Part shown: positions 7 to 51,581 of the stretch, piece by piece
Numbering within the stretch: position 1 is the first letter of the stretch
How the letters are laid out: the number at the start of each line of letters is the position of its first letter
Virus record (IMG/VR): IMGVR_UViG_3300015063_000002
Location: 3,200-67,199 of that record
Length of the DNA stretch: 64,000 nucleotides
Reading direction: 5' to 3' (one strand)
Source: a virus
Made by a program: the position numbers and the translations under genes
The notes under the pieces: model-generated
Database searches by the model: none
What the model was told of the DNA's origin: nothing
The model's input: the letters and a program-made list of their open reading frames with translations, nothing else

Positions 7-474
7 TTAGAGGTAATACTGCCGGGAAACGATACTACTGATACCTTTGGTGACATTTTTGAAAACGTCTTGATAGTTTTCTTTAGGCATATTTGTTAGC
101 ACCAAACCGATAATAACTACAAGGATCAGTAAGCTAATGATTACAGCGAGAGGGATATTCCAGGCGGTGGGGTTAGCAGATTTCTCAAAAGGTGGGAGCG
201 GTATCACACTAGATTTTTCGTTAGCCCATTCCCCAGCCAGCCACTTTTGGGCCTGTGCCAGAGCAGGGTTGTTTGAGTCAATTGTAGCAGCCTGTCTAAT
301 AAGTTGGTCAGCTTCATTCAAATCAGGATTGGTAAAAGCCGCCCACAAAAGAAGGTTAAAGTCATTAGGGTTACTACTCAAAAGGGATTGAAGGAGTGAG
401 TAAGCTGCTTCTTTTTGATCATTTTGGGCCAGGCCAATCGCTTTATTGAATTTTGCTAGATCAGATGCGTTCAT
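7..474 (-). CDS. TPR-like helical N-terminus plus one TM helix; paralog of 39329-40201
   Basis: First ~85 aa align by eye with the 39329 protein (NP[NT]D[FV]NLLLW[AT]AFT...NPALAQA[QK][KG]WL); hydrophobic stretch IPLAVIISLLILVVIIGLVL. Confidence 0.65.
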   Translation of the reverse strand: MNASDLAKFNKAIGLAQNDQKEAAYSLLQSLLSSNPNDFNLLLWAAFTNPDLNEADQLIRQAATIDSNNPALAQAQKWLAGEWANEKSSVIPLPPFEKSANPTAWNIPLAVIISLLILVVIIGLVLTNMPKENYQDVFKNVTKGISSIVSRQYYL

Positions 475-496
475 ATAATCCTAGTTTCTTTGTATA

Positions 497-534
497 TGTG
501 AGAGTGGATAAGTTTTACATTACCCACTCTCACA
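497..534 (-). terminator. Hairpin at the 3' end of GGY-NN array B
   Basis: TGTGAGAGTGG (497-507) / CCACTCTCACA (524-534) perfect 11-bp inverted repeat, extendable with one mismatch. Confidence 0.7.
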
Positions 535-632
535 CCCACGTCTTGTCTTGCCTTGCCAAACCTCACCCGGCCTTACCTCACCTGACCATGCCGCGCCAGA
601 CCTCACCATCCCAGTCCGCACCCGGCCTTGCC
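533..632 (-). ncRNA. GGY-NN pentamer array B (putative VIPR-like guide RNA)
   Basis: Minus strand, 20 phased units: GGC-AA GGC-CG GGT-GC GGA-CT GGG-AT GGT-GA GGT-CT GGC-GC GGC-AT GGT-CA GGT-GA GGT-AA GGC-CG GGT-GA GGT-TT GGC-AA GGC-AA GAC-AA GAC-GT GGG-TG; 15/20 GGY; intergenic; ends in a hairpin. Confidence 0.8.
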
Positions 633-743
633 TGATTGTTCGCCACCCACTCCTTTAGAGAGCAAACGGCGGTGTAAAGTAACTTGTGGAAATTGCCGCG
701 AGATGACGGGATTCCGTCCAAAATGTTGGTATAATGACATTCC

Positions 744-776
744 GATACTAACCGGGGCGTAATCCCGGTTAGTATC
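744..776. terminator. Hairpin downstream of the XRE repressor gene
   Basis: GATACTAACCGGG / CCCGGTTAGTATC perfect 13-bp stem directly after the stop codon. Confidence 0.7.
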
Positions 777-1012
777 TAAACCGCCAGTGGGCTAAGAGTC
801 TTCTGGCGGTCTTCTTTTGGGTTCACCGCCTCAAACTCTGACAATTCAGAGAAATCAACGCCAAAGAACTTGGAAAGCTTAATCAGTGTGGTTGCATACG
901 CCTTACCGCCGCCCTCTAACCTAGTAATGGTAGCAGAACCAATTCCACTTTGAATTGCTAGACCACGCACCGATAAACCTCGATTCACCCTTAATTCTTT
1001 TATCTTGTTCAA
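776..1012 (-). CDS. XRE-family HTH repressor
   Basis: IKELRVNRGLSVRGLAIQSGIGSATITRLEGG is a cro/CI-type HTH; divergent from the SWIM operon. Confidence 0.9.
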   Translation of the reverse strand: MNKIKELRVNRGLSVRGLAIQSGIGSATITRLEGGGKAYATTLIKLSKFFGVDFSELSEFEAVNPKEDRQKTLSPLAV

Positions 1013-1080
1013 GCCGTAACCTCTTTCTCAAGCTGAACTTTGTAAATCCTACGATTTAACTATATCACACTTGATAACAC

Positions 1081-1108
1081 TTGACAAGATTTAATATGCT
1101 GGTATAAT
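1081..1108 (+). promoter_or_regulatory. Consensus sigma70 promoter of the SWIM/HNH/integrase operon
   Basis: TTGACA (1081-1086), 16 nt, TG-N-TATAAT (1103-1108); ACACTTGA direct repeats overlap the -35 (possible operators). Confidence 0.8.
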
Positions 1109-1224
1109 AAGATTACAGATGATTACACTTAATGACATCTGAGGCAAGGCCCGCCACTATTTGCGGTAGTGACAGGCCGGTTGATAAATCGAGTGACCAA
1201 TCTATCAAAAGGATTATACCTTAA

Positions 1225-1668
1225 ATGCTTACCTACAACGAACTAAATTTCTCCAACGCAGTCGGTGCTTCCCACAAGGCCCGCAAGGTCAAACCTAATG
1301 TTCGCATTGTTGACCTCGGTGAGTTCGATGTCAAATCGAGCCAGGGCGACTGCTATTACCGAGTAACGTTCCACGAGTCACCTGATGGCGATACCGCTTT
1401 TGAGTGCGAGTGTTTGGCCCATACGCACGGCGGTAGGAAATGCTATCACGTTGGGGCGTGCGAATCGCTTTACATTAACCAGCAAGCTCAGGCCCTCCGG
1501 GTTTCCGAGCGTGCCGCCGTCCTTATAGCTCAGGTTGAGGAAATTATCGCAACTGAGATGGCCGCCCAAGTACACAAGTGCCGGGATTGCAACGAATCAG
1601 CCGTTACGACTGAGGGCCGTTGCAATCGTTGCCAGGCCCAAAAAGACAGGGAGGACATTTTCGGATGA
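1225..1668 (+). CDS. SWIM zinc-finger protein; paralog of 30097-30528
   Basis: CECLAHTHGGRKCYHV = CxC...CxH SWIM motif; C-terminal CxxC...CxxC; ends DREDIFG like the paralog. Confidence 0.8.
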   Translation: MLTYNELNFSNAVGASHKARKVKPNVRIVDLGEFDVKSSQGDCYYRVTFHESPDGDTAFECECLAHTHGGRKCYHVGACESLYINQQAQALRVSERAAVLIAQVEEIIATEMAAQVHKCRDCNESAVTTEGRCNRCQAQKDREDIFG

Positions 1669-1850
1669 CCATCACTCGAACCAACCTCAACCGGCGACTG
1701 ATTAGCCGCCGGTTACACCCCTCAAATAGCCAGTTGAGGGAATGTGCGAAATGTTACCAAGTCGCTACAGTCGGTCGGCTTTGTTTCGACCACTGGCGGC
1801 AAAGGGTATTTACAGCAGTATGGGTCGGTTTTGAGGAGGTGGCCTCATGA
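1665..1850 (+). CDS. Small Cys/His protein; paralog of 29951-30100
   Basis: ATGA-coupled to the SWIM gene; MTITRTNLNRRL...ECAKCYQVA...RLCFDHWRQ. Confidence 0.65.
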   Translation: MTITRTNLNRRLISRRLHPSNSQLRECAKCYQVATVGRLCFDHWRQRVFTAVWVGFEEVAS

Positions 1851-2257
1851 CGATGCAAAATTACTACCAAACCCGAAGGGCTTTTTTGAGACAATCGCCA
1901 CATTACAACGTGATTTGTCGGCACAACCACCGAGCGCATAAGTGTGGGGCTAAAGGCCGACTTCACCATCGGGCGTTGGTGCGATTCTACCAGATTTACC
2001 ATCCTGTTTGCCTACGCTGTGGTGCTACCGAGTGCTTGAGCCTTGACCACATTGTGCCGCTTTGCCGGGGCGGGCGAGGTGACATTTCTAATTTGCAGCT
2101 TTTGTGCGTAGGTTGCAATAGCTCTAAACGTGAAGCTATCGCTGATTACCGTCGTCCCTGGCAAAAGGTTCAAGCCCAGTTCTTTAATGATTACTATCGG
2201 CTAAAAAAGGTTTATCGCCGGGCGTTAGGGCGGTTCAAGGAGGCAGCATCATGGTAG
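1847..2257 (+). CDS. HNH endonuclease
   Basis: CLRCG...LDHIVPLCRGG...NLQLLCVGCNSSK. Confidence 0.9.
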   Translation: MTMQNYYQTRRAFLRQSPHYNVICRHNHRAHKCGAKGRLHHRALVRFYQIYHPVCLRCGATECLSLDHIVPLCRGGRGDISNLQLLCVGCNSSKREAIADYRRPWQKVQAQFFNDYYRLKKVYRRALGRFKEAASW

Positions 2258-2814
2258 ACATCGAGATTTCCATCCCCTTCCACAAAGGCGACTACCCGGT
2301 TAACGATAACTACCAAGCCGAAGTTCTGGAAAGCATGGTCAAGTTTGCGGCTGAGTGCTACAACAGTGACTTCCTCTGGAAACCGACACTAGCGGCTATG
2401 AAGAGTGATTTTCCTGGCCTGGAAGTGATACGCGAGTCTCCTTTAGACGAGCTGCTTTTTCTCTTATTCAACGAAGGTCATTATTTTGACGACGACTTCG
2501 AGCAGGGCCTTCGTATGTACTCGAAGAAAGCAAATGCTAATTTGAGTGAACTGGAGTTGAAGGCGGCAAGGTATCTTTACGAAGTTGGCCTCAAACTTTC
2601 CAGGGAGTTTGCCGAGAAGTACAAGAACTACTTTGAGCAAGCTCTGGATGAAGACCTTCATGCCCCTAATTACGCCTTTATAAAAGCTTGTGAGAAGGCT
2701 GGTTTACCCATTACCAATTGGGCTAAATGGTGGCCTGAAGAGTTCGCCTACCTGTATTACTATGTCTACGACGATAAAGATGAGAAACCGGGTGATAGCC
2801 ATGAGAAGGTTTAA
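2251..2814 (+). CDS. Hypothetical protein
   Basis: 187-aa ORF overlapping both neighbours in the operon. Confidence 0.6.
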   Translation: MVDIEISIPFHKGDYPVNDNYQAEVLESMVKFAAECYNSDFLWKPTLAAMKSDFPGLEVIRESPLDELLFLLFNEGHYFDDDFEQGLRMYSKKANANLSELELKAARYLYEVGLKLSREFAEKYKNYFEQALDEDLHAPNYAFIKACEKAGLPITNWAKWWPEEFAYLYYYVYDDKDEKPGDSHEKV

Positions 2815-4201
2815 TACTTTGCGCTCGGATTTAGTAGAGGAGGGTCGATCCCGGCCCTCACGCCCGGCACACACCCGGCAAGACCCCATGACAGTAGGAA
2901 ATTTGGTAAGTGCTTACCATCGTTACGGTTGGTCGGTCGGTAAGCGGGATGCAACTCAACAAATCCACAAATACGCGCTGGCTCATTTTGAAGAGTTCGC
3001 CGGTGCTGATAGGTTGGTTAACGAAATTGACGCACAGCTTTTGGATGATTATAGGTATAGTCTCGTCCAAAAAGGTTTGAAAACCGTGTCAGTCAATAGC
3101 TATCTTCGGAGCTTACGCGCCCTTTTTCGTTGGGCCAACCGTTCCGGGCGGGCTACGGTAGATTATCAATTCCCTACTATTGAGTTTATGCGGCGCGGCC
3201 CTATCACTCCGAAAGAGGTGGTTAATCAAGAAGAGTTTGGGATGCTGCTTGAGGCTACTAACCGCGAGTCTACTACGCTTTTACAGGTCAGGGCTAGAGC
3301 AATCCTTATGATACTTTATGACACTGGTTTACGAGCAAGTGAGCTTTGCGGAGCGCAGTGGGGTGATTTAGAACATTCCATTATTGATGGTCAGGCAAGT
3401 CACACTCTAAGAATCCAAAGTGCAAAAGGTGGCGATCCTCGTATTTTGCCTTTACATCCAAACACCTGGGCGACTATTAGAGAGTATCGTGCGGAACTAT
3501 TGAGGCCGCATGGCAGGGGCTATCGTAAACGTGGTAACGATCCAACGTGGTTATTTGTGTCTAATCGAGATATGAGTGAGCCACTAACTGTATCCGGCCT
3601 ACGCCGCCTTTGCGAACGTTTGGGGCGGCATTGCCAGATACACGCTAACCCTCACAAGTTTCGTCATAGTTTTGCTTCCTCCTGGATCAATCAAACAGAG
3701 GGGCAAGAGATAGAAACATTGATCGAAATTGCCGGATGGAAAGACCGCAAAATGTTGGAGGTCTATGGTCATTACCAAACCCCAAGTCTAGTTAGGGCTG
3801 CTCGGCGTAACAGCCCCATCAACAATCTTACAGGTTTTAAGAAGTCATCCAACACTCTGCCCGATCTGTTGGCTGAGGATGGTATACAAGACCCTAAAGA
3901 ACGCAAGGCTCAAGAGGTATTGCGACGTTTTAAGTATAAATATCATGCTGACGTGGAGTCGGGGTGCTGGGTTTGGATTGGTGGCGTCTCGCTTAAATAT
4001 AAACAACCACTTTTTATGGTGGAACGACACATGATCCGGGCAGCTAGATGGATATACGAGCATGATATAGGCCCAATCCCACCATCTTATGTTGTGTGGC
4101 AAACTTGCCAGAATCGTCTTTGTGTCAACCCGGCTCACTTGGTAGCGGGTTCAGTAGCCGAACTGCAAGCCCTTCGGCGTACAGCACTTTCCGTAGAATG
4201 A
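2801..4201 (+). CDS. Tyrosine recombinase with C-terminal HNH-like domain
   Basis: GLRASE, HKFRH, GW...Y catalytic set; C-terminal GCWVWIG...TCQNRLCVNPAHL; start taken at MRRFN (2801) rather than the upstream GTG. Confidence 0.85.
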   Translation: MRRFNTLRSDLVEEGRSRPSRPAHTRQDPMTVGNLVSAYHRYGWSVGKRDATQQIHKYALAHFEEFAGADRLVNEIDAQLLDDYRYSLVQKGLKTVSVNSYLRSLRALFRWANRSGRATVDYQFPTIEFMRRGPITPKEVVNQEEFGMLLEATNRESTTLLQVRARAILMILYDTGLRASELCGAQWGDLEHSIIDGQASHTLRIQSAKGGDPRILPLHPNTWATIREYRAELLRPHGRGYRKRGNDPTWLFVSNRDMSEPLTVSGLRRLCERLGRHCQIHANPHKFRHSFASSWINQTEGQEIETLIEIAGWKDRKMLEVYGHYQTPSLVRAARRNSPINNLTGFKKSSNTLPDLLAEDGIQDPKERKAQEVLRRFKYKYHADVESGCWVWIGGVSLKYKQPLFMVERHMIRAARWIYEHDIGPIPPSYVVWQTCQNRLCVNPAHLVAGSVAELQALRRTALSVE

Positions 4202-4306
4202 ACACAAACGACTCTTTACCCTTTTCCCGACTAGCACCCAGTGTGCAAGCCAGTAACCGGCTTAGTCGGTTACTGGCCTCATGAACCTAAAAGAGGAGAA
4301 ATTTTG

Positions 4307-4579
4307 ATGACAACCAACAAGATCGAAGGAGATGTGCCAGTAACTACAGAAATTGAACATATTAGGGTAGTTTTTATAGAAGCCTGGGCCTGCTTGAACT
4401 ATTTCGACATCAAAGCGTTAGCGACGGCCCGTAACAATGGCCGTCATAACCCACCTGATGAAAAAGACCTGATTGCACTATATTTGTGCGGTCGGGTAGC
4501 ACACTTGCCGGTAACTGACCCGTTTGAGGCTTGGGGAGCGGCTAGGGCTTTACTGATTAACAACGATACACAAATTTAA
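4307..4579 (+). CDS. Small hypothetical protein upstream of the RAMP gene
   Basis: RBS AGAGGAG then ATG at 4307; 90 aa. Confidence 0.6.
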   Translation: MTTNKIEGDVPVTTEIEHIRVVFIEAWACLNYFDIKALATARNNGRHNPPDEKDLIALYLCGRVAHLPVTDPFEAWGAARALLINNDTQI

Positions 4580-4606
4580 TACATACTAGGTAAGGAGACG
4601 ATTCTA

Positions 4607-5200
4607 ATGGCAACTAACAACATCTTACAGGCGAAAGTGACAATCAAGGGTACTCGCGGTCTACTCTGGCATCACTTCGGCCCTGATGCTATCCCTTTAG
4701 AGAAGCAGGAACGAACGGGGGTAGCTGGTAACGATCCCGAAGAGTGGCGTAAAACTGTTCTCATGTTACCCGATACCCGTCAGCTTTACCTCAAACCCAC
4801 CTACGTTTTCGGCACTCTTCGGGATGGAGCTAAGTACACTGCCCGCAAGCGCGGTACACTACAACCCTTCCTGGCTGCCACGTTACAGGTGATGGATGAG
4901 TTGATTTTGATCGATGACAGGTTTGTCCCGGTTGAGCCACTACCGACCGAACCAACTAAGCTTGTTTATCTGGACATTCAATCGGTTAGAAATCCGGCTA
5001 CTAAGGCCCGTAACGTCCGTTATCGGATCGCCGCCGCACCCGGCTGGACTTGTAGTTTTAACCTTATGTGGGATAAAACCATCGTCAGCCGGGGCGAGAT
5101 GGAGGCCGCAACGATTGATGCGGGCCGGTTTTGCGGCCTGGGGGACGGTCGTTCGGTCGGCTATGGTCGCTTCGGGATTGAAGCTTTCGAGGTTGAGTAA
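4607..5200 (+). CDS. Stand-alone RAMP / Cas7-like protein (putative Vipr-like)
   Basis: N-terminal strand KVTIKGTRGLLWH, LYLKPTYVFGTLRDGAK, and C-terminal glycine-rich loop AGRFCGLGDGRSVGYGRF typical of RAMPs; RBS AAGGAG; no other cas gene in the window. Confidence 0.8.
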   Translation: MATNNILQAKVTIKGTRGLLWHHFGPDAIPLEKQERTGVAGNDPEEWRKTVLMLPDTRQLYLKPTYVFGTLRDGAKYTARKRGTLQPFLAATLQVMDELILIDDRFVPVEPLPTEPTKLVYLDIQSVRNPATKARNVRYRIAAAPGWTCSFNLMWDKTIVSRGEMEAATIDAGRFCGLGDGRSVGYGRFGIEAFEVE

Positions 5201-5244
5201 TACGGGGCTATTGATTTGTTAAAGTGCCTGGGGAAGGAGGCTCA

Positions 5245-5559
5245 ATGCCAAGAAAAAGACAACCTAGAGAGATTTGGCGAGAAACCCGTAAAAAGGTTTT
5301 AGCCAGAGATGATTACAAATGTGTGAGGTGTAGGTCGCCGGTAGCTGTTGGGACTGCTCACATTGACCACATCCGTAGCGGCAAACTCGGTACTAACGAA
5401 ATGTCCAACCTTAGAACCCTTTGCCGCTTATGTCACGCTACCAGAGCCGATCACCGACATCAAGGACTGAGTGCAAAGCTAGTCCGTGAAGGTTTGCTTC
5501 CTCCTAACTGGCGAGAGCTAGTTTGGGAGGATAGCGAACTATCTAACATGGGTAGTTAG
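5245..5559 (+). CDS. Small HNH endonuclease between the RAMP gene and array A
   Basis: CVRC...AHIDHIRSGKLGTNEMSNLRTLCRLCHATR; RBS AAGGAGG before ATG 5245. Confidence 0.85.
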   Translation: MPRKRQPREIWRETRKKVLARDDYKCVRCRSPVAVGTAHIDHIRSGKLGTNEMSNLRTLCRLCHATRADHRHQGLSAKLVREGLLPPNWRELVWEDSELSNMGS

Positions 5560-5571
5560 CTACCCAACAAT
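5543..5571 (+). promoter_or_regulatory. Possible promoter for array A
   Basis: CTAACA, 17 nt, AACAAT; would place +1 at about the first GG (5577); weak match to consensus; overlaps hairpin GGGTAG-TTAG-CTACCC. Confidence 0.35.
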
Positions 5572-5576
5572 AACCC

Positions 5577-5666
5577 GGTTTGTTTTGGTCAGGCGTGTCA
5601 TGGTGGGGCGAGGTGCGGTGCGTTCAGGTCAGGCGTGGTACGGCTAGATAAGATAAGATATGGTAA
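5577..5666 (+). ncRNA. GGY-NN pentamer array A (putative VIPR-like guide RNA)
   Basis: 18 phased units: GGT-TT GTT-TT GGT-CA GGC-GT GTC-AT GGT-GG GGC-GA GGT-GC GGT-GC GTT-CA GGT-CA GGC-GT GGT-AC GGC-TA GAT-AA GAT-AA GAT-AT GGT-AA; all triplets fit GNY, 12/18 GGY. Confidence 0.85.
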
Positions 5667-5694
5667 CGCTACTACTAACAAGTGGTAGCGTTTT
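5665..5694 (+). terminator. Intrinsic terminator closing array A
   Basis: AACGCTACTAC-taacaa-GTGGTAGCGTT followed by TT. Confidence 0.75.
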
Positions 5695-5757
5695 AAATTG
5701 CTTAGAAAAATGTGGCATTTAAACACAGACCGAACCAGTTTACTTTAGCAAAAGTAA

Positions 5758-6261
5758 TTAGTTCCCAAACATATCTTTATCAAAAGAAGTAGCCCCGGCC
5801 TTAACCACTGCGTCAGTTGCTTGCCCCAAGACTTGAAAGAAGGGCCGGGCTGGGTCAGTGGGGGTGCCAAACTCCTGGAAAGAAGCGACGTTTGTGGGGT
5901 CAATCACACTCATGACGGCTTGCCAGGCAACCGTTTCTTTACCCCCGTCACCACCACTGTCACCCTGTGGCTGGCCATACTCGATCTTGGGGCTGAGGGC
6001 GGCTTTCTTCAAATCGCCCTTTCGCTCCAGGATTTTCTTACCGCCAAAAGCTCTGGACTTGAATTTCTGGTAGTCGGGTGAGAGAGCTTCCCAGTTCTCG
6101 CCGCCGGGCGTGCGTTCGGAGTTGAAGCCCTCTTCGACCTCTTTAAGAAACTGTTTGGCCGCGACACTCAAACTGGATTTGAGCGACTTCTTAACTTTGG
6201 TCGCACTCAGTTCGGCCAGTGGGTTACTTACGAGCTTGACTTTGGTTTTGAGTGTCGGCAT
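5758..6261 (-). CDS. Phage virion morphogenesis / tail completion-like protein
   Basis: FNSERTPGGENWEALSPDY...ILERKGDL...FQEFGT...PARPFF pattern; last gene of the structural operon. Confidence 0.7.
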   Translation of the reverse strand: MPTLKTKVKLVSNPLAELSATKVKKSLKSSLSVAAKQFLKEVEEGFNSERTPGGENWEALSPDYQKFKSRAFGGKKILERKGDLKKAALSPKIEYGQPQGDSGGDGGKETVAWQAVMSVIDPTNVASFQEFGTPTDPARPFFQVLGQATDAVVKAGATSFDKDMFGN

Positions 6262-9851: not shown

Positions 9852-10784
9852 CTAACGCACGTCCGCTGTGACTACGAACTGACCAGCACCGACCGTGACC
9901 GGGTGAGTATCGGCAAAGTCAATTTCGATGTCGAATAAGTAAGTACCCGGTTCGAGGGTGTCGGTGATCGTACTGGTCAGGGCCAGGCTAACGACGAGCG
10001 TGCCGGTGATGGGGTCAGCCGTGATGATTTGGGCCTCAGTGCGCGGGAATAACAAACCGCTACCGTCCAAGCCAACGCTTACCCAGGCCCTAGCACCCGT
10101 GTAGTTCCAGGTAACGGGCAGGCCGGGAATTGTCCAGCGGAGATCGCGGCCTTCCGGGGCTTCGTAGCTATCGCCTCGCCTAATGGTCTTGGTTTCGAGC
10201 AGGACGGGTAACGGGATGGGCGTGCTGGCCGCGACCAGAGCAGGGTAAGCCAACTGCCGGAAGAGTGCCGCGCCAGCAGTGTTCGGGGCATAAGAGGCGG
10301 ATAGCACAGCGGCCAGGGGATCGCTGCCTGCGGGAGCGTTTGCCAGCACGTAAAGAAGATTGCCATAAGTCCCAACATTCTGGTAGCCGGGCGGGTTGGG
10401 TGAGGTATTCCAAACCCCGCCGCCCACGCTTGCGGGTAACTGTTGGATTTGATTCAGAATGGATTGGCTACCAGCATCCATATTCTGCACCCACTGGTAG
10501 CCGACAATGCACACATCCCGAATTTCGGGCGCGTCTACAGTCGGGTCGCTAGACTTGAAAACACAGTGAAACGCCCCACCGATATAAGTGCTGGCGTTGA
10601 GATATTGATGCCCGTAAACGCCGCCGCCTAATGCGACTGCCGCCACGTCGGATTCTAAATGCTGTATAACGCCCTGGTACGGCGGGCCGTAGACATCACA
10701 CGTCACACTAAGGCCAGTCTTCCCGACCTTGTTCTTGGTGAAGAAAGCCGAAAATTCTACTGGTTGGTTAGTTTGCTGTAGCAT
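9852..10784 (-). CDS. Virion protein with BppU-like C-terminal domain
   Basis: C-terminus IRRGDSY...TDTLEPGTYLFDIEI...TVGAGQFVVTADV. Confidence 0.5.
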   Translation of the reverse strand: MLQQTNQPVEFSAFFTKNKVGKTGLSVTCDVYGPPYQGVIQHLESDVAAVALGGGVYGHQYLNASTYIGGAFHCVFKSSDPTVDAPEIRDVCIVGYQWVQNMDAGSQSILNQIQQLPASVGGGVWNTSPNPPGYQNVGTYGNLLYVLANAPAGSDPLAAVLSASYAPNTAGAALFRQLAYPALVAASTPIPLPVLLETKTIRRGDSYEAPEGRDLRWTIPGLPVTWNYTGARAWVSVGLDGSGLLFPRTEAQIITADPITGTLVVSLALTSTITDTLEPGTYLFDIEIDFADTHPVTVGAGQFVVTADVR

Positions 10785-10870
10785 AGTAGTGTTGTGCCGT
10801 TTCCCTTTTCTTTGTGCTGATTAGACTAGACTAAATACAGTTTTGACCGACCTCACCCTGCGGCCCTGGC

Positions 10871-11599
10871 CTAACCGCCGGTGGCGAGGTAATACGTCCG
10901 GGGCAACCGGGCTAAAATGGAATCCTTGCCCGGCGTGCCACCCGTGCTACCCGCACCCGGCATGGTGAAATTTACTTCTTGTTCGTCGTCTGAGGCCGAG
11001 TACGAGCCACCAATACGGGTCAGTAGCTTCAACTGGCATAGGTCAAGGGCCACGTCCACCAGTAGATCGAGGTCTACGGCAGGCGTATAAACCACTCGGA
11101 TACAGGCTCGGTAGAGGTCTTTGTAATCGCCCTCTAGCCGCATTCCGCTCACGCCCAGTAAGCCTAGCCCACCGGCAACCGCGCTGTTAGCTCCCCAAAT
11201 ACCTTGCGTCCGTGCGCCCGCTCCGGCCAGGCGGTAGAGTTCCCGGCCCGACTCGGCGATAGAGAAGTCGCCCGTGCCACTTGTGAAGTCGGGGCGGCGG
11301 GTGAGGAGCGTCCCCAGTTCGTAAACCTGTAAGACCGCACCCGTAGAATGGGTATCTATTTCGGCCAACAGGGACACGATTGGTCGGCCACCGTCTAAGG
11401 TTTCTTCCAACGATAGGATTTTGGTAGTCTTATCGAGTTGCGGTTCAAAGCCCAGCACCCGCCGAATATCCGAGATTGCCCCTTTAGCCATTCGGTCAAG
11501 GGCGGCCTGGCTCGTAATGCCGGTGCGGTTGACCAGAGTCGGGTAGTTATCGAGGATGTCCTGGCCGGTGATTAGAGGGATGGGGAGAGTAGTAGGCAT
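10871..11599 (-). CDS. Head-tail adaptor-like protein
   Basis: First gene after the capsid; IRVVYT...ALDLCQL pattern. Confidence 0.5.
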   Translation of the reverse strand: MPTTLPIPLITGQDILDNYPTLVNRTGITSQAALDRMAKGAISDIRRVLGFEPQLDKTTKILSLEETLDGGRPIVSLLAEIDTHSTGAVLQVYELGTLLTRRPDFTSGTGDFSIAESGRELYRLAGAGARTQGIWGANSAVAGGLGLLGVSGMRLEGDYKDLYRACIRVVYTPAVDLDLLVDVALDLCQLKLLTRIGGSYSASDDEQEVNFTMPGAGSTGGTPGKDSILARLPRTYYLATGG

Positions 11600-13713: not shown

Positions 13714-13947
13714 AATTCGGGGGTATTCCTTTCTGGGGGAATGTAAAAGGGGTTGTTGGTAAGTAAGTAGGTAAATAGGTAAGGGGATAGGATAGGGCAG
13801 GGCAGGGCCGCAACATGGTGGCTGGCTGGCTACCCGAACAGGGGGTCTGAGGGTCGGGCTGGGTCAAAGGGACGGGTAAGTTGCTTACTCAGTAATGCGT
13901 TAGGATGGGGCAGGTTAGTGGGTAGATTGGTAAGTAGGTCAGATAAT

Positions 13948-14272: not shown

Positions 14273-15807
14273 CTAAGATTTAACCGAATCGAGGTATTGC
14301 AGTGATTTCGCTAGTCGGTCGTGAGCGTGCTTGAACGCTTTTTCCCATACGGGTGAGTTTTTACGGTGACTGGCACTCTTGAGATTAAGCAAGCTTAATC
14401 CTATCTCCTCCCAGTAACCGACTCCGGCCAGAGCCAGGGCGGTTGCATCGCGCATTTGGATTTGCCGCCCCTTTACCGAACCGACCGCCAACTTCGCACC
14501 GGAGGCAAGATAGCTCTTGCTGGCCCGGTTGAAGACGGCGTAAGGTTGGGCCGGGGTTGCTACTACCGAGAGTTCAAACAGGTCTGCCGAGATGATTTCC
14601 TGGCCCTGGCGCGACCAAATACCACCGATTGAGAAGGTGCGGAGGATATTGGCCTTGATGGATTCGTAGATTTCGACCATCGGCTGCCAGGTCGGTTTAC
14701 GCACGAAGGCTTTAACCCACAGTCCGTACTCGTCGTCGAAACGGTACGAGATGACCTGGCCGAGCGGTTTGTTACCGATGATCGGGTCAAGGCCGTGTTC
14801 GTAGAGCAGGATCGGATTGAGATTGAAGTAAGTCTCGACCGACTGGCGGAAGGTCTCACTGGTCGGCCCTAGCACGTCCCCGTAGCGGTCTTCGGGATAA
14901 CGCACGGACGCCCAACCTTCGATATAGATACCGGCAATGCCGTTGTATAGCACCTCACCGCCACCGCGTAGAGCCTTGAACTCGGAATGTTCGGCCAGAC
15001 GGCGTGGGCCTCTGGGCTGCTTTGGTCCGGCGATAAGAGGGGTAAGAGCCGAGACGGGCTTGATAAGGATGGGTTTGGTGTTGGCGGGTTTTCGTGGTTG
15101 CTGCACAGATTTACCTTTGCTGCTATCGGTGGTGGTAGGGATAATGGGGGTAAAAATAAGCTGGTTAGCAAGCTCTGTCAGGGTAAAGCCCTGATGACTC
15201 TTGCTCTTGAAGGCCGAAGCTGACCCCTCTAGCTTGAAGGGAATGCGCTTCGTTCCCCAGGCCAGTTGCACCTGGTCGAACTTCATCTCAGTTTTAGCCA
15301 GGTCAATGGTCGGAGTTGGGCAGTCTTTCGGGAGATAGGCCAGCGTGATGTGAGCCGTGAACGAATGGTTGGAGGCTGGCTTAACCCCGCTTCGGTTGAG
15401 GCAGGTTAGAAGCTCTTGCCGCCACTCGTCTAGCCCTGGTGCGTCTACACTGGCCCACAGTGCGTTCGTGCCATCCCGTCTTCGTCATTATTGAACCGGC
15501 CAACCCCGCCGATGGTGGCGGTGAGCGCGGGGACAGAGTGGGCAAAGGTTTTCAGATTACGAGCCAGACGTTTTGCTACCCGTGCGTCAAGGCCACCCTG
15601 ACCGGCCTGGCCGAGATAGGCCAGCGTTACGTGCATCTCGCTGGTCGGGACGGGCGTCGCACCTGGTGGTAGGGCCTTTTCGACCGCAGCCGCGAGTTCG
15701 GTTGCTACGCCTGTCGGCAGGAAAAAGGCGACCATGACGCCGGTCTGGTTGGCGGTTAACTTGTCTTGGGTTTGGGTTTGGGTTTGGATAGTCAAGGTGT
15801 TAATCAC
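14273..15807 (-). CDS. 2H-phosphoesterase / HK97 prohead protease fusion, split by one frameshift at ~15477
   Basis: HVTLAY in 15445-15807; a second HITLAY in the open frame from 15478 that runs without a stop into the 14273-15286 ORF; protease motifs IEGWAS, EDRYGDVL, LYEHG, FSIGG, ELSVVATPAQP. Confidence 0.75.
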
Positions 15808-16187
15808 TTAGCTTTGAGGAAGGTAAGAATAAACTCTGGGCTTACACGAAGCGAGGTATAGAAAGTATAGAAAGTTGGGTAGTGAAGTAGTTCTTGAGTT
15901 TTACACCGTGAGAAAAGGTTGATTCGCAAATTGCCTGGGCAATCTTGATCGCCTATTACGAGGCGATTTGCTTTGATACAGTCTGGTTTACACCCTTGCT
16001 CTTGAAGCTCGTAATCACGGTACCGGGTCATACCACTCAATATTGAATCAAAAACTGCTTGGCTGTCTGTCGGTAGTTCATTCCAAGCTGGAAGCACTTC
16101 TTCAAAATCCTGTTGGAACCACCCCACAAAACCTGCGTGCAGTTGAGCCGGTGCTACTTCTTGCCCTTCGATAGTTTGTGCAATCAA
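15804..16187 (-). CDS. Hypothetical cargo protein
   Basis: AT-richer ORF inside the head operon. Confidence 0.5.
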   Translation of the reverse strand: MIAQTIEGQEVAPAQLHAGFVGWFQQDFEEVLPAWNELPTDSQAVFDSILSGMTRYRDYELQEQGCKPDCIKANRLVIGDQDCPGNLRINLFSRCKTQELLHYPTFYTFYTSLRVSPEFILTFLKAK

Positions 16188-16203
16188 AATTTCTTTTCCC
16201 TTG

Positions 16204-16863
16204 TTACCAGCCTAGCTCGTAGAGTTCGAGTTCTGAAACTGGCGTTGGGCCAGGCTTGAGAGCAGTAACAACGGATTGAGGCTGTGGTTGCCGTCTGGCG
16301 GCCTCCCACTCGCTACACAGCATACCCATCGAAATGTGGTCGTAGTAATGGCCGTCGTGGTAGACGCTTTGACGTTTACGGCCCTCGACCACGAAACCTA
16401 ACCGTTCATAGAGAGCCTGAGCTTTCGAGTTGTACTCGTAAACCGTAAGACCAACCCGGTGAAGGTTCTGTTCCTGGAAGGCGTACTTCAAAACGAGTTG
16501 AATAGCTTCCGAACCGTAGCCTTTACCCTGGTCTTTGGGGTCGCCTATACCGATACCCAGCGTGGCCGAACGGTTCACCCGGTCAATCCCGTAGAGCTTG
16601 ATATAGCCGATCAGCCGGTCAATCTGGGGTAAGGACATCGTGCGGTTCGGCAGTGGTCGGATACGAAACTCGACTTCGCTATTCGGGTTGGAGTTAAAGT
16701 CTTTCTCCCACGTCTCCCAGCGGGATACTGGATCGTGGTAGACCGGGCCACCAGCCGCCGCTCGGTGAAAGGTCGGTTCGTTGAACCATTGGCACAAGAG
16801 TTCGGCGTCTTCGGGCCTGGGGCCGGTCAGACGGATTAGCTCGCCGGTGAAAAGGCTATTCAT
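16204..16863 (-). CDS. GNAT acetyltransferase (RimJ/RimL type)
   Basis: LIGYIKL...LGIGIGD...QGKGYGSEA...LHRVGLTVYEYN..A..LYERLGF..EG; start taken at MNSLFTGE. Confidence 0.9.
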   Translation of the reverse strand: MNSLFTGELIRLTGPRPEDAELLCQWFNEPTFHRAAAGGPVYHDPVSRWETWEKDFNSNPNSEVEFRIRPLPNRTMSLPQIDRLIGYIKLYGIDRVNRSATLGIGIGDPKDQGKGYGSEAIQLVLKYAFQEQNLHRVGLTVYEYNSKAQALYERLGFVVEGRKRQSVYHDGHYYDHISMGMLCSEWEAARRQPQPQSVVTALKPGPTPVSELELYELGW

Positions 16864-17305
16864 CACCGTCACTGCCGACCAGTTCCCTGTAGCCCGGCAA
16901 GTTTGGTTGTAGAGCTTGTAGAAACCCCAAATCAATTAAAGTCGTAGCTCGAATCAGTATGTGTGAGTCGGCGTAGTGGTCGTGATCGGGGCGGAAATAG
17001 TAGTACGCCCGTAGCACTGCGTAATGGACGTTGGTAAAGTACCCTGTGTGAAGCCCAACCTCTAGCTTAAAGTGGTCCAAATCCGTTTCGAGAGTGACAT
17101 CTTTACCAAATCCCTGACTCATAGCGTTGTTGTTTAACTTCACGGCCAGCGAACGAAAAAACTCTCGAACTATCGGGGTCACTTGGGGCTGGTCTGGGAG
17201 TTTGTCAAACATCGCCCAGTACGCCTGCTCGATATGATCCTCGCCAATCTGCAAATCATCGGAGAAAACGGTGCTTCGCTTTGCCATATACCTCACTGCT
17301 ATCAC
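16856..17305 (-). CDS. Hypothetical protein
   Basis: Coupled to both neighbours. Confidence 0.55.
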   Translation of the reverse strand: MIAVRYMAKRSTVFSDDLQIGEDHIEQAYWAMFDKLPDQPQVTPIVREFFRSLAVKLNNNAMSQGFGKDVTLETDLDHFKLEVGLHTGYFTNVHYAVLRAYYYFRPDHDHYADSHILIRATTLIDLGFLQALQPNLPGYRELVGSDGDE

Positions 17306-17826
17306 CTCGTTTCGGACTCTGGCTGCTTTACCCGAAAAGGGCTGGGTATGGAATGTTTTGGGTGAGGTTCGGGTGCATAGCCTGAGTATGCGTTAGGGGT
17401 GGTGCTAGTGAACTGGGTGTCACACGTTACAGTAATACTGTTTGGGTCAGGCTGCGTTGGTATGATCGGCGATTGCGGTCGGTAGGGCCGCACTAGCCAT
17501 TCGCCCTGGCTGCGGAGCAGGTCTTGATTGCGTCGTGCCTGCTCACGTGCGCGGTCTTCGTCACGCCACTTTCGGTCTCGTTCCTTGCGGGCTTCGAGAA
17601 AATCGTCGTAAGCCTCCGCACTGACCATAACCGGAGGTTCGATGCACTCGCGATAGGTAGCCTTGAACTGGGCGTCACCCATAACGACTACACTACCATC
17701 TGGATTCGTGATCATCCAATCGCCGGGTTTAACGTCGTACTCGAAGCCTTCTTGAGCGTAAAGCTTGGCAATACAATTGAACTGTACCGCCTCGACCTCG
17801 ACCGGCTTACTTACAAATTTAGCCAC
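17302..17826 (-). CDS. Phage hypothetical protein
   Basis: N-terminal KPVEVEAVQF...GDWMI...F.ATY pattern common in phage proteins. Confidence 0.55.
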   Translation of the reverse strand: MAKFVSKPVEVEAVQFNCIAKLYAQEGFEYDVKPGDWMITNPDGSVVVMGDAQFKATYRECIEPPVMVSAEAYDDFLEARKERDRKWRDEDRAREQARRNQDLLRSQGEWLVRPYRPQSPIIPTQPDPNSITVTCDTQFTSTTPNAYSGYAPEPHPKHSIPSPFRVKQPESETR

Positions 17827-17833
17827 TAACTAT

Positions 17834-19357
17834 TTACCCCTCTTCCTCTACCGCCTCGATTATTCGCACACCCGGCAGGTAACGGATGGTCTTACCACCG
17901 TCGCCGAGTTGGGCTATCGGCGTTACGCCGTCCGGCCCGTAGATGTAGTGCATTCCCGGCTGTTCGTCTTCATTCCCATAACTACTACCATGCCCGCCGC
18001 GCCTGCTCTGGGCCGACATCGGGGCGTCCGGGTCGTCTTCGAGTATGAGGTGCCGGTTGGCAAGCCGCTTCATGGTTTGCCGCTTCTCCCACAAAGAGAG
18101 GGACTTCAGGCTGTCCACCTTGCCCACGATGTCCAGAATGGAGGCCACGTCGTCGAATATGGGAACGTCGAACTCGAAGTCCCAGCCGAACGCTCCGGTA
18201 ATTTCACTGAGTTTCCTTTGCCACATCTCGGCCAGGGGCGTGATGCACTCCAAATAGTAGGTGCGGTTGGCCGCGTCAAGTTTGTTGTACTGAGCGTCGT
18301 CCTGGTTGCCGAGCTTCGACTGTGGCACGCGGTACAACTGGCGGATGCGCTCCTGACCGAATTTCTTCCACTCAATCATCCCCATATCGGTTTGGCTGAG
18401 GCTGACGTTTTGCCAGGTCATGCCCTCTGTGAGTAGGGCAATTTTGAAGTGATTGCGTGCGCCCTGGAACTGTTCCTTAATCTCGCTCTTTAGCTGCTTG
18501 AACACCTTCGGTTCAGGCGAGCCGGGAGCCGAGATGATGCCGGATAGGACGGCCCCGTTAGCGAAGAAACCGCGCTGGTAGTCGTCAATACCGACCTGCG
18601 CGTCCAAAATACCGGAAGCGACGGCCAGCTTGGACATTCCCCAGAAGATCGAAACCGGGTTAACCTCTTTAGCATGGCAAATGAGGTCGGGTTCGGCGGC
18701 CAGCGTCGTGTTACCGCTGAGGTAGTAGTAGCCGATTAGCCCTTCGTCCGCCTCTACTATCGGCTGTGTCCAGTTCGGATTGAGCGGCCAGAGGAATTCC
18801 GGCCAGCCCAGTTCGTTCGGGTTGTCTTTGAGGGCCAGGGCGTTGCCGGTCAGTCCAAAGTACATCTGTTGGAGAGCCATAAACTCAAACCAACTCTGGT
18901 AAGGGTTAGGATTACGGAGGAGGGCGGTCAGAGTCTGGAACTGCTTTAGCTCCCAACTGTCCTCGAAAAGCCGGGTCGTCCTGGCTATCTCCTGGGTGGA
19001 GGCGTGAGACGCTTCCTCGACCACCGTGCCAGTCTTCTTGTGACGCAACTTCCACTTCAACCGGGCGATGGTTTCGGCGATCAGGCTGACGCAGGCGTGA
19101 ACCGTGTCGTCGGCGGTAAAGGCTCCGGCCTGCTCTGCGGGCGTCCTGAAACGACTAAGGGCGATGTTAGATTGGTTGCCGCCCATCCCGCCACCGAACA
19201 TCCCGGTGCCACCGTAAGTTGACCAGCCAGCGTCACCGTCAAGCCCGCCAGTGAAGCTCTTGGCTTCGCTTTGGATAGCGGTAGTGGGTGTCGTGGCGGG
19301 CTGGCTCTGGCTCTGAGCGCGGCGGGCTTTTCGATTGTTGCGCGAGGGTTTGGACAT
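17834..19357 (-). CDS. HK97-family portal protein
   Basis: TVHACVSLIAETIARL, PNPYQSWFEF, GNALA, LWPLNP, FFANGA..SGII, YRVPQSKLG. Confidence 0.92.
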   Translation of the reverse strand: MSKPSRNNRKARRAQSQSQPATTPTTAIQSEAKSFTGGLDGDAGWSTYGGTGMFGGGMGGNQSNIALSRFRTPAEQAGAFTADDTVHACVSLIAETIARLKWKLRHKKTGTVVEEASHASTQEIARTTRLFEDSWELKQFQTLTALLRNPNPYQSWFEFMALQQMYFGLTGNALALKDNPNELGWPEFLWPLNPNWTQPIVEADEGLIGYYYLSGNTTLAAEPDLICHAKEVNPVSIFWGMSKLAVASGILDAQVGIDDYQRGFFANGAVLSGIISAPGSPEPKVFKQLKSEIKEQFQGARNHFKIALLTEGMTWQNVSLSQTDMGMIEWKKFGQERIRQLYRVPQSKLGNQDDAQYNKLDAANRTYYLECITPLAEMWQRKLSEITGAFGWDFEFDVPIFDDVASILDIVGKVDSLKSLSLWEKRQTMKRLANRHLILEDDPDAPMSAQSRRGGHGSSYGNEDEQPGMHYIYGPDGVTPIAQLGDGGKTIRYLPGVRIIEAVEEEG

Positions 19358-19365
19358 CTGGTTAG

Positions 19366-21006
19366 TTACTCGTCGTTTTCGCTGGGGTCATCATCGTCAT
19401 CGTCATCGCTCAACAGGTTCAAGACTCGGTAGCCTGGCTTGGGTTTGTGAGACTTTCTAACTTCGTAAGCAATAGCGCGGGCCATTATCCGGTCATCGTG
19501 ACACTTGTAAATGGCCCCCACCTTACCGTCAGGGTGTCGAACGAAGGTGTAACACTCCCGGAAAAACCCGGTATCGTGGAAGACCCCCGGCCAGTCTTCC
19601 ATCATCTGTTCGAGCGTGGTGAGCAGGATCGGCTTGGTCTTGCGGTTAGTCGGGTAGCCCGGTAACTTCGTGGCCCGGTCATTTCGCACATCGTAGTCCT
19701 GATGCTCGTAGATTTCGGGATAGTGTTCCTGGTAGATGAGCGTCGTCAGAACCGCGTGGCCGTGATTGTTTCGTTCGACCGCGATCACAGCCTCGTTGTA
19801 CTCGTGTCCGATGTCGGAAAGTAGTTCGGCGTAATCGTGCGGCTTCCACAGCCCATGCAGGGCGGCTACTTCCTGGCCGGTCGCCGTGTCAATAACACTT
19901 GCCGCGTCATAGTCCCCGCCCGGTAGCCCCTCGGCCACGTCTGCACCGATGATGTAGGTATGGTCAGGCTGGGGAGCTTGCCAGATTAGGACGCCACCGT
20001 TCTTACGGGTCTGGAGCGGTTCCTGTGCGCCCTCGGCTCTGGCCCGGCTGATCGTTTCTTCCTCGAAGTAGAGGTTGCCACTGGTTAGAAAACAACTCGT
20101 CTCGTCTTCGGGATACTCCTGGTGGAAGAGTTTCTTCAGGGCGGCTATTTTCCAGCGTCGCCAGTTGATTTGCTGCCGGTCGAGGCGGTGCTTCTCGACC
20201 AGGGCCGTTTCTTCTTTGTTAAAGGAGGCGTAAGGGTCAATGTTGTAGGCCAGGGCTTCGGCGTCCGTCAGCCGGTACTCGATTTGCCACCACCAGGGGA
20301 AGAAGAAAGGCTTGTAGTTGTTCTTGCCTTCGAGGGCGTCCACGTACTCGGTGTGGAAGTAGCCGCCCGCACCTTTGGCAGTTGACTCCAGGTCTACGTA
20401 AGCGTTCTTGGGAGCGGTTTCGAGCAGGCCGCTTATAAGCTCGTCCGGGTTGGGCCACAGGGCCACCTCCGAACCGTGAATGTCGTTGACGGTAACACCG
20501 CGCCCGATACCGTTCTCGTTACCTGCCGTGAAGATAACGTAGCGAGAGTTTATCTCCGGGAAGTACAACTCACGCCGGTTGTTGTATTTGGTTTTAGGCC
20601 GAAACTCCGGCGGCAAGTTGTTGTAAAAGAACTGAACTGTCTGGAAGAGTAGTTCGGTAGTCGTCGAGTCGTGGGCGACCGAGACGGCTGTCCAGTTAGG
20701 GATCGTACACACGCGAGCGAACCGGCGAGCCAGGTGGAAGGTACTCATGCCGACCTGACGCGGCTTCAAATAGATGTTGCGGCGGGCCTGTTCCAGGGCT
20801 ACCCGGCGTTGGATCGGGGTGAAACGAAATGGGACGGTCTTAGCATCTTTGGTCTTAACAACGAGCAGGGTCTCGATATATTTGAGGTCATCTAAGAGTA
20901 CCTCGGCTATGTCCTCGAAGGAGCGGCGGTTGGTACCAGTGTCCTCGGTGTCGGTGTCGGTGCTTTGCTGGTTAGTGCTGTTATCGTCGTCCGTCCCCGC
21001 TTCCAT
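19366..21006 (-). CDS. terL: Terminase large subunit
   Basis: Walker A region YLKPRQVGMST, Walker B DIHGSE, LESTAKG, RNase H-like YIIGADVAEG...DDRIMA. Confidence 0.92.
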   Translation of the reverse strand: MEAGTDDDNSTNQQSTDTDTEDTGTNRRSFEDIAEVLLDDLKYIETLLVVKTKDAKTVPFRFTPIQRRVALEQARRNIYLKPRQVGMSTFHLARRFARVCTIPNWTAVSVAHDSTTTELLFQTVQFFYNNLPPEFRPKTKYNNRRELYFPEINSRYVIFTAGNENGIGRGVTVNDIHGSEVALWPNPDELISGLLETAPKNAYVDLESTAKGAGGYFHTEYVDALEGKNNYKPFFFPWWWQIEYRLTDAEALAYNIDPYASFNKEETALVEKHRLDRQQINWRRWKIAALKKLFHQEYPEDETSCFLTSGNLYFEEETISRARAEGAQEPLQTRKNGGVLIWQAPQPDHTYIIGADVAEGLPGGDYDAASVIDTATGQEVAALHGLWKPHDYAELLSDIGHEYNEAVIAVERNNHGHAVLTTLIYQEHYPEIYEHQDYDVRNDRATKLPGYPTNRKTKPILLTTLEQMMEDWPGVFHDTGFFRECYTFVRHPDGKVGAIYKCHDDRIMARAIAYEVRKSHKPKPGYRVLNLLSDDDDDDDPSENDE

Positions 21007-50200: not shown

Positions 50201-50481
50201 TGTGGGAAATCTGGCAGATGTACCTCGACTGGCAACACCGAGCCTGGCCGGTCAAGTCCGTAGCCGAGTACGAAAATCTAGTTGAGGCTCAAACAGCCTG
50301 TTTTTACATGAACATCGGCCCGACCCAGGCCCTCCAGAGTTTCGGAGCGACGCCCGGCACGCACATGGTGGCTTATTACAATTCTGAAATTGAAACTTTG
50401 TCCTCGAAGCCGCGTCCGACGAAGGTTTTTGAAGTTTGTGACTACTCCCCAGGCGTAAACGCCAGGGCATCTACCGATTGA
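50200..50481 (+). CDS. Hypothetical protein whose 3' end is replaced by IS sequence
   Basis: Runs into the element at 50438; the empty site would end ...VFEVC-stop. Confidence 0.55.
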   Translation: MWEIWQMYLDWQHRAWPVKSVAEYENLVEAQTACFYMNIGPTQALQSFGATPGTHMVAYYNSEIETLSSKPRPTKVFEVCDYSPGVNARASTD

Positions 50482-51581
50482 TTACGGACAGTCGCTAGAC
50501 CTAGACTGAGTATTACCAGGGCGGCAGCCGTGTCACGGTGCATCTGTGCCCCACACGGGCAAGAGTGCCACCGCACGCTAAGGTCTTTCTTAGCTATCGT
50601 GCCGCAATTAGGGCAGGTCTGTGAGGTCTGCCGAGGGTCAACTTTCACCACTAGACTACCGGCACTCGCAGCCTTGTACTCTAGCATGGTTATGAAGGTT
50701 GACCATCCCGCATCATTCACCGACTTGGCAAGCATGGAAGCCGCCAGCCCTTTGATGTTTAAGTCTTCTACCGCTATGAGGCTGTACTGAGTAACCAGGG
50801 AGTGAGAAAGTTTATGAGCAAAATCGAGACGTTGGTTACGCACTTTTCTAAAGGCACGGGTAACGCTTCGTTTGGCCTTGATTTTGGTGGGGTCAGTCCT
50901 GGGTTTGGTTCTGAGACGGGCAAGCTTCCTTTGCACTTTTGCCAGATGCTTCTCGGACTTACGAAAGAAACGGGGGTTGTCCACTTGCTCACCATTCGAG
51001 AGATTAGCCAGATGTTCAAGGCCGACATCGATCCCGATAGCCGGGCCGTCGTGTTGAAGGGGAGGTTCAAATTCGTACTCTACCGAGAAGACGACGTACC
51101 AGCCCAGCCCTTCCCGCTTGATAGTGGCGGTCTTAACTTTACCCAAAACCTCCCGGTGCAACTTCATTTTGAACGTACCAAGCTTGGAAAGGGTCAGTCT
51201 ATCGTTCTTCAAGCTCCAACCGCCCTGGGGGAAAGTGAAGCTATCATAACGGTTACGCCCTTGAAACCGAGGGAAACCAGCCTTAACCCCACGATTCACC
51301 CGACTAAAGAAGCCTTTGAAGGCTTTGTCTACTCGCTTCAACACGTCTTGCAAGACCTGGCTGTGTACTGCCTCAAGGTCTGGCCTGACCTCTTTAATGG
51401 CGGGAAGCTGGTTTTGTTGGTCATAGTAGCCTATGGATTTACTGACCATCCGGTAAGCGTCCCGACGTTCTTGCAGAGCCGCATTGTACAACTCCCGACA
51501 CAAATCAAGAGTATATTTAAGACCCCTTTCCTGGCCCTTGGTTGGGTACATTCGGAATTTGTATGCTCTGTGAGTTTTCAT
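50442..51581 (-). CDS. tnpB: TnpB RNA-guided nuclease
   Basis: HTH AYKFRMYPT, RuvC IGIDVG / AVEDLN / RDTAAA, Zn CPNCG...CPCG. Confidence 0.95.
   Translation of the reverse strand: MKTHRAYKFRMYPTKGQERGLKYTLDLCRELYNAALQERRDAYRMVSKSIGYYDQQNQLPAIKEVRPDLEAVHSQVLQDVLKRVDKAFKGFFSRVNRGVKAGFPRFQGRNRYDSFTFPQGGWSLKNDRLTLSKLGTFKMKLHREVLGKVKTATIKREGLGWYVVFSVEYEFEPPLQHDGPAIGIDVGLEHLANLSNGEQVDNPRFFRKSEKHLAKVQRKLARLRTKPRTDPTKIKAKRSVTRAFRKVRNQRLDFAHKLSHSLVTQYSLIAVEDLNIKGLAASMLAKSVNDAGWSTFITMLEYKAASAGSLVVKVDPRQTSQTCPNCGTIAKKDLSVRWHSCPCGAQMHRDTAAALVILSLGLATVRNQSVDALAFTPGE

Follow-up and report, generated by a model that had tools for sequence, protein, structure and literature searches.

The locus studied here raises the question of which DNA its two guide arrays are directed against. 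It was found in a virus record of 78,404 bases (C1) from a soil metagenome, and the window, meaning the whole stretch of 64,000 nucleotides that was analysed, is part of that record. A gene for a RAMP-like protein lies in the window together with two tracts of five-base units, A and B, and an initial annotation had decoded these tracts by reading their NN pairs in order and skipping one base per unit. The NN strings obtained in this way were letter-exact on recheck. The best overall reading, which has about an even chance of being correct, is that the guides act against the flanking late genes of sister phages, in a system of exclusion and perhaps of RNA-guided homing. The features on which the argument draws are as follows (window positions unless stated).

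7 to 5700, no strand: island flanked by the neck and tape-measure genes, with a TPR membrane protein, guide B, XRE, HNH, integrase, Vipr, HNH and guide A
494 to 537, minus strand: 3' hairpin of vrRNA B (−25.9 kcal/mol, z −7.7)
538 to 632, minus strand: repeat tract of vrRNA B, 19 GGY-NN units, of which units 1 to 15 (632 to 558) are informative and the last four probably scaffold
4607 to 5200, plus strand: Vipr protein (RAMP-like), 197 amino acids, matching SUSP1 Vipr (PDB 36pp, E = 1.5e-5), with 1,777 homologues
5245 to 5559, plus strand: HNH nuclease accessory gene, found no more than about 1 kb from vipr in all 15 relatives tested
5535 to 5570, plus strand: leader hairpin before A, matching the conserved spacer between guides in the multi-guide arrays of relatives
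5577 to 5666, plus strand: repeat tract of vrRNA A, 18 five-base units, of which units 1 to 13 or 14 are informative and the last four probably scaffold
5665 to 5692, plus strand: 3' hairpin of vrRNA A (−16.8 kcal/mol, z −5.3)
5758 to 6261, minus strand: neck (tail-completion) gene (PF05069, phrog_26), the right flank of the cassette, belonging to the family that guide A fits best
5803 to 5841, minus strand: own copy of the A-like site, 18 of 26 NN bases
Record C1, 457 to 413, minus strand: own copy of the B-like site in the tape-measure gene, 18 of 30 NN bases, outside the window

The sole PDB match of the protein encoded at 4607 to 5200 was the Vipr protein of phage SUSP1, with the glycine-rich C-terminal loop aligned, and this match identifies the locus as a VIPR system, a kind of RNA-guided DNA targeting in phages that was described in 2026. 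The gene is a stand-alone RAMP homologue outside any CRISPR locus, and each vrRNA is a run of GGY-NN pentamers that leads into a structured 3' tail. An HNH nuclease gene stands beside vipr, the HNH proteins of 15 related loci being 47 to 80% identical, and the whole is carried by a phage and not by a defence island. The locus is a real VIPR-HNH locus. Elsewhere in the island, positions 2690 to 4201 encode a tyrosine integrase fused to a C-terminal HNH_3 domain.

Tracts A and B are, by a wide margin, the strongest phased GG tracts of the 78-kb record. Most related guides end in AA-rich units (AA 37% in the last two units, compared with 6% in the body), and the last three to four units of A and of B are therefore probably scaffold, to be omitted from target searches. 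This leaves an informative length of about 13 to 14 units for A and 15 for B, so that the initially decoded strings stand in their letters while their full lengths of 18 and 19 units do not stand as targets. The leader hairpin of A overlaps the end of the HNH gene, and it may be a processing signal or a remnant of lost guides. Solo guides away from the main array, as B is, recur in relatives (L129 7127 to 7221, minus strand; L132 3626 to 3796, minus strand; L130 8627 to 8676, minus strand; L121 1902 to 1976), and three of these four run in the opposite direction to vipr. Upstream of the capsid gene, at 13750 to 13829, GG recurs weakly with a period of five bases in GGATA and GGGCA units; these are not GGY, and the tract is probably not a guide.

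The skip of one base per unit had already been established in the VIPR discovery preprint, which shows it in vitro and in vivo, aligned to the wobble base, and reports targets in competing phages (10.64898/2026.04.26.720920). Assembly of the Vipr filament and gapped pairing have also been shown (10.64898/2026.04.26.720927). Statistically, the clade studied here follows the same rule: when 31 related guides were compared with their own loci at the DNA level, the mean z was 1.51 for a gap of one base, against 0.36 for no gap and 0.18 for a gap of two, with about two-thirds of the guides showing no resemblance to their own locus. The suggestion that the period falls in register with codons is likewise part of the published picture, and at both sites proposed below the reading lies on the sense strand with the skipped base at codon position 3.

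The expectation that the window holds no convincing match was borne out, as gapped self-scans at gaps of 0, 1 and 2 did not rise above shuffled background. The discovery paper takes an 80% match of the NN bases as its cut-off for recognition, and no self target of at least 80% was found at any of these gaps, the best being 18 of 26 for the 13-unit form of A (A13) and 21 of 30 for the 15-unit form of B (B15). Once decoded, guide A reads approximately FFQVIGEAAQQVT; the site most like it in the phage itself, FFQVLGQATDAVV, lies near the end of the neck gene (5841 to 5803). Guide B decodes to about KRALIDLAIQEKR, with its best self-site, ARALEDLTIQERR, in an open reading frame of 992 amino acids outside the window. 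This frame, which had no family match of its own, is called the tape-measure gene on the basis of its position and of PF10145 in two of its homologues. The two own copies match at 60 to 69%; the A-like one, being below the threshold, is presumably not recognized. Taken alone, the single-sequence self-scans were not significant (p = 0.24 for A and 0.10 for B).

The two sites emerge from a profile test, in which the decoded guides were read as codons against profiles of the phage's own open reading frames, built from homologues found without use of the guides. Among 23,150 codons, each scored in both orientations, the top site of A13 is residue 141 of the neck protein with 17.8 bits, a score reached by 6 of 2,000 shuffles, and B13 peaks at residue 841 of the tape-measure protein with 17.6 bits, reached by 7 of 2,000. 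Significance in this genome-wide test falls with guide length (31 of 2,000 shuffles for A14 and 30 of 2,000 for B15). A second test used, at these pre-chosen sites, four homologues from relatives that lack the cassette, again found without the guides and with the phage's own copy excluded. Guide A matched 62 of 104 bases at the neck site (7 of 100,000 shuffles) and guide B 76 of 120 at the tape-measure site (0 of 100,000). Three of the four homologues are closer to guide B than the own copy is (22, 19 and 19 against 18 of 30), whereas for A the own copy is closer than any of the four. On the best of these for B, L216, the match of 22 of 30 was reached by 0 of 300 shuffles, and gaps of 0 and 2 gave 17 and 19. 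No match of at least 80% to A or B was found in the neck or tape-measure genes, the best being 18 of 26 and 22 of 30, so the sampled homologues are not themselves the real target.

Guides of relatives behave similarly: with decoded guides scored against all six frames of their own loci, many resembled a gene of their own phage without matching it. Those of L005, L050, L123, L125 and L126 resemble their own tape-measure genes, and one of L133 resembles its own portal gene. In the L125 provirus, three guides (10621 to 10953) all resemble the tape-measure gene (15003 to 20513), one of them in 11 of 12 residues and yet in only 19 of 24 NN bases. The L133 guide (4050 to 4139) resembles the 3' end of the adjoining convergent portal gene (4175 to 5407), a layout like that of guide A and the neck gene.

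The position of the sites adds a second kind of evidence. The island of about 6 kb that holds the VIPR cassette is bordered by the neck gene on one side and by the tape-measure gene on the other. In the distant relatives L217 and L218 the neck gene directly precedes the tape measure, and neither vipr nor HNH was found in the DNA fetched for them. Across seven records of 32 to 80 kb, the best-fitting sites of 14 of 14 guides, a set that is not fully independent as it includes the three L125 guides on one gene, fall in the 35% of the record nearest to the cassette, with a median of 11%. This clustering has a Fisher p of 2.7e-5 (5e-4 without this phage) and was matched by 0 of 150 shuffled sets, the positional prediction being tested after the idea of homing had been framed. 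As is expected of the sites of homing endonucleases, the proposed sites lie in conserved genes near the insertion point.

Taken together, flanking genes as a target class are well supported statistically, with no exact target found, and the guides probably address these genes as carried by sister phages. Guide B is very probably aimed at the sister's tape-measure gene, and for guide A the sister's neck gene is a likely target. The initial proposal of a foreign target such as a competing phage is consistent with published VIPR members, but the target appears to be the flanking genes of a close relative and not an unrelated phage. The accompanying idea that hits might fall on promoters was not supported, as both proposed sites are inside coding genes.

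A mechanism can be outlined from homology, from the published members and from these sequence statistics. By homology with the published members, Vipr coats each guide and reads its NN pairs against DNA, with one base skipped per unit. In close relatives, guide A would recognize the 3' part of the neck gene and guide B would recognize a repeat conserved in the tape-measure gene, while the carrier would escape as its own copies differ enough. Because the skip falls on the wobble base, synonymous change would fail to free a target. The conserved HNH protein would be recruited and would cut the sister genome, during co-infection or as a resident prophage, leaving the sister handicapped; that HNH cuts the target is somewhat likely. 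Since the cuts would flank the insertion point, repair from the carrier chromosome would copy the cassette across. It is possible, though less likely than not, that the cassette is in this way an RNA-guided homing element whose reprogrammable, wobble-blind guides direct HNH to the flanks of empty sites in sisters. The island also has an integrase and a repressor module, and for this reason may move by other means.

Silencing alone is a serious rival to this mechanism, possible though of clearly lower probability. The targets would be the same, and the Vipr filament would block transcription of the sister's late tail operon, with neither cutting by HNH nor homing. No activity other than repression has been demonstrated for VIPR (10.64898/2026.04.26.720920; 10.64898/2026.10.15.759431), and type II members act by repressing genes. 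Both the neck gene and the tape-measure gene are late genes essential to the phage, and the profile and homologue evidence for the targets applies equally. What silencing leaves unexplained is the clustering of targets beside the cassette and the retention of HNH in all 15 relatives.

Direct searches bear on a different target for guide A. The initial annotation had proposed a search with the gapped patterns, and when this was done in viral, metagenome and GTDB data no exact target appeared. The best self-matches were below threshold yet non-random, as they fall in the two genes beside the cassette. Exact seeds of the guides in five scans of IMG/VR gave chance matches that failed to extend, and exact seeds in JGI metagenomes and GTDB, together with mismatch searches of 400 Chloroflexota genomes, gave no convincing target. 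No match was found for the decoded peptides in Pfam, PHROGs and NCBIfam (a comparison of low power), for B in a motif-weighted homologue search, or for B in 13 related viral records and one plasmid; in the 400 genomes B had one match, with three mismatches. Nor were close relatives of the neck and tape-measure genes found in IMG/VR, and in contigs of the source run the tape-measure region was present only from this phage. Several candidates for B were set aside. L048 (4733 to 5116) matches 11 consecutive units exactly but only 24 of 38 bases overall, at the 3' end of a 127-residue phage gene without a link to this phage, and was regarded as chance. L032 (29 of 38) and L035 (28 of 38), the best of the metagenome seed, look like housekeeping genes by their flanking residues and were also taken as chance, and a small Chloroflexota regulator, a first guess, was dropped for want of support.

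For guide A, these searches brought up the host HepT (DUF86) toxin gene of an MNT-HEPN toxin-antitoxin pair, which would make the guide a counter-defence; this target is unlikely. HepT genes of Chloroflexota were the two best of 25 GTDB seed matches, in frame and with the skip on the wobble base, the better one matching 24 of 26 bases over 13 units, above the 80% cut-off, and a profile of 11 unselected genes scored 17.4 bits where 3,000 shuffles reached at most 13.0. Set against this, 24 of 26 is by estimate about the chance expectation in 596 Gb, no other match with three or fewer mismatches was present in the 400 Chloroflexota genomes, no perfect motif occurred among 120 targeted matches, the decoded peptide has no Pfam match, and HepT fits none of 23 related guides. 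Units 2 to 12 of A had 62 matches in the 400 genomes against 6 for a reversed control, but of 30 loci that were fetched HepT accounted for only 3, so the excess is mostly compositional; 1 of the 62 was in the unpublished genome G230. In bits HepT equals the neck gene (17.6 versus 17.8) from a search space about 100 times larger, and the neck gene is therefore preferred for A.

It is quite improbable that the guides began as matches to late genes of the phage itself, whether serving self-regulation or left as remnants of a copy of adjacent DNA, and have drifted since. Such an origin would explain the closeness of the sites to the cassette and the better fit of A to the own copy than to distant homologues, but B fits the alleles of relatives better than its own, scaffolds and hairpins are intact, and a self-targeting nuclease would harm its carrier. 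The VIPR discovery paper, moreover, found no self-targeting at 80% or above in the clades it checked (10.64898/2026.04.26.720920). A last reading, and a very improbable one, is that the two guides are aimed at unrelated elements that have not been sampled and resemble the flanking genes by chance. The single-sequence self-scans alone and the failure to find an exact target anywhere would suit it, but the profile, homologue-only and clade-wide position tests reject it.

With the neck and tape-measure genes of sister phages as the preferred targets, the locus can be compared with known systems. Like the VIPR systems of Escherichia phage SUSP1 and a Pseudomonas fulva prophage (10.64898/2026.04.26.720920; 10.64898/2026.04.26.720927; 10.64898/2026.10.15.759431), it has a homologous Vipr, GGY-NN guides and a structured 3' end, and it shares with them the skip of one nucleotide, the wobble alignment, the location in a phage and, probably, competing-phage targets and self-avoidance by mismatch. 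It differs in three respects. Here an HNH accessory belongs to a phage-borne cassette, whereas nucleases have been reported only for types III and V, with enrichment in the defence islands of hosts. The tracts have 18 to 19 units with an AA-rich 3' scaffold, in contrast to 9 to 16 units in the published systems. Finally, the proposed targets are sister virion genes that flank the cassette, whereas the published ones are satellite recombinases, lysis-lysogeny regulators and vipr genes.

The free-standing phage homing endonucleases SegB (PMC2330249) and MobE, of the HNH family (PMC2790892), both of T4, offer a second comparison. They too are encoded by nuclease genes beside conserved phage genes, and they cut the homologous region of related phages that lack the gene, so that gene and flanking DNA pass non-reciprocally. 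There the protein itself reads the site, whereas here exchangeable guide RNAs and a separate RAMP filament would do so. Homing was not mentioned in the VIPR preprints searched for it.

As the decoding rule was already published, the contribution of this locus lies in the class of target and in the geometry: phage VIPR cassettes that bear a nuclease, with guides pointing to relatives' versions of the virion genes beside the cassette. If HNH does cut, this would be a compact programmable nuclease (about 200 plus 100 amino acids) with a gapped code, in a family for which so far only repression has been shown; if homing follows, ancestral RAMP guides would be linked to selfish spread and not to immunity. 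The method is reusable: when a guide is read in codons and compared with profiles of the families to which the phage's genes belong, a likely target gene can be named even where the target genome is unsequenced. The provirus L125 offers a clean case for finding a sister target.

The host of the phage is probably a member of the Chloroflexota, as judged from one mobile gene: the best plasmid match of the TnpB gene at 50442 to 51581 is from Ca. Chlorohelix, with 70% identity, the next match having 50%. It is one of two IS605 TnpB genes in the window, the other lying at 60648 to 61850. No exact terminal repeat was found in the record. Both of its ends lie inside tape-measure-like coding sequence (L188 1 to 2977 and L189 10948 to 11403) with similar glycine-rich C-terminal text, which suggests a nearly complete circular genome.
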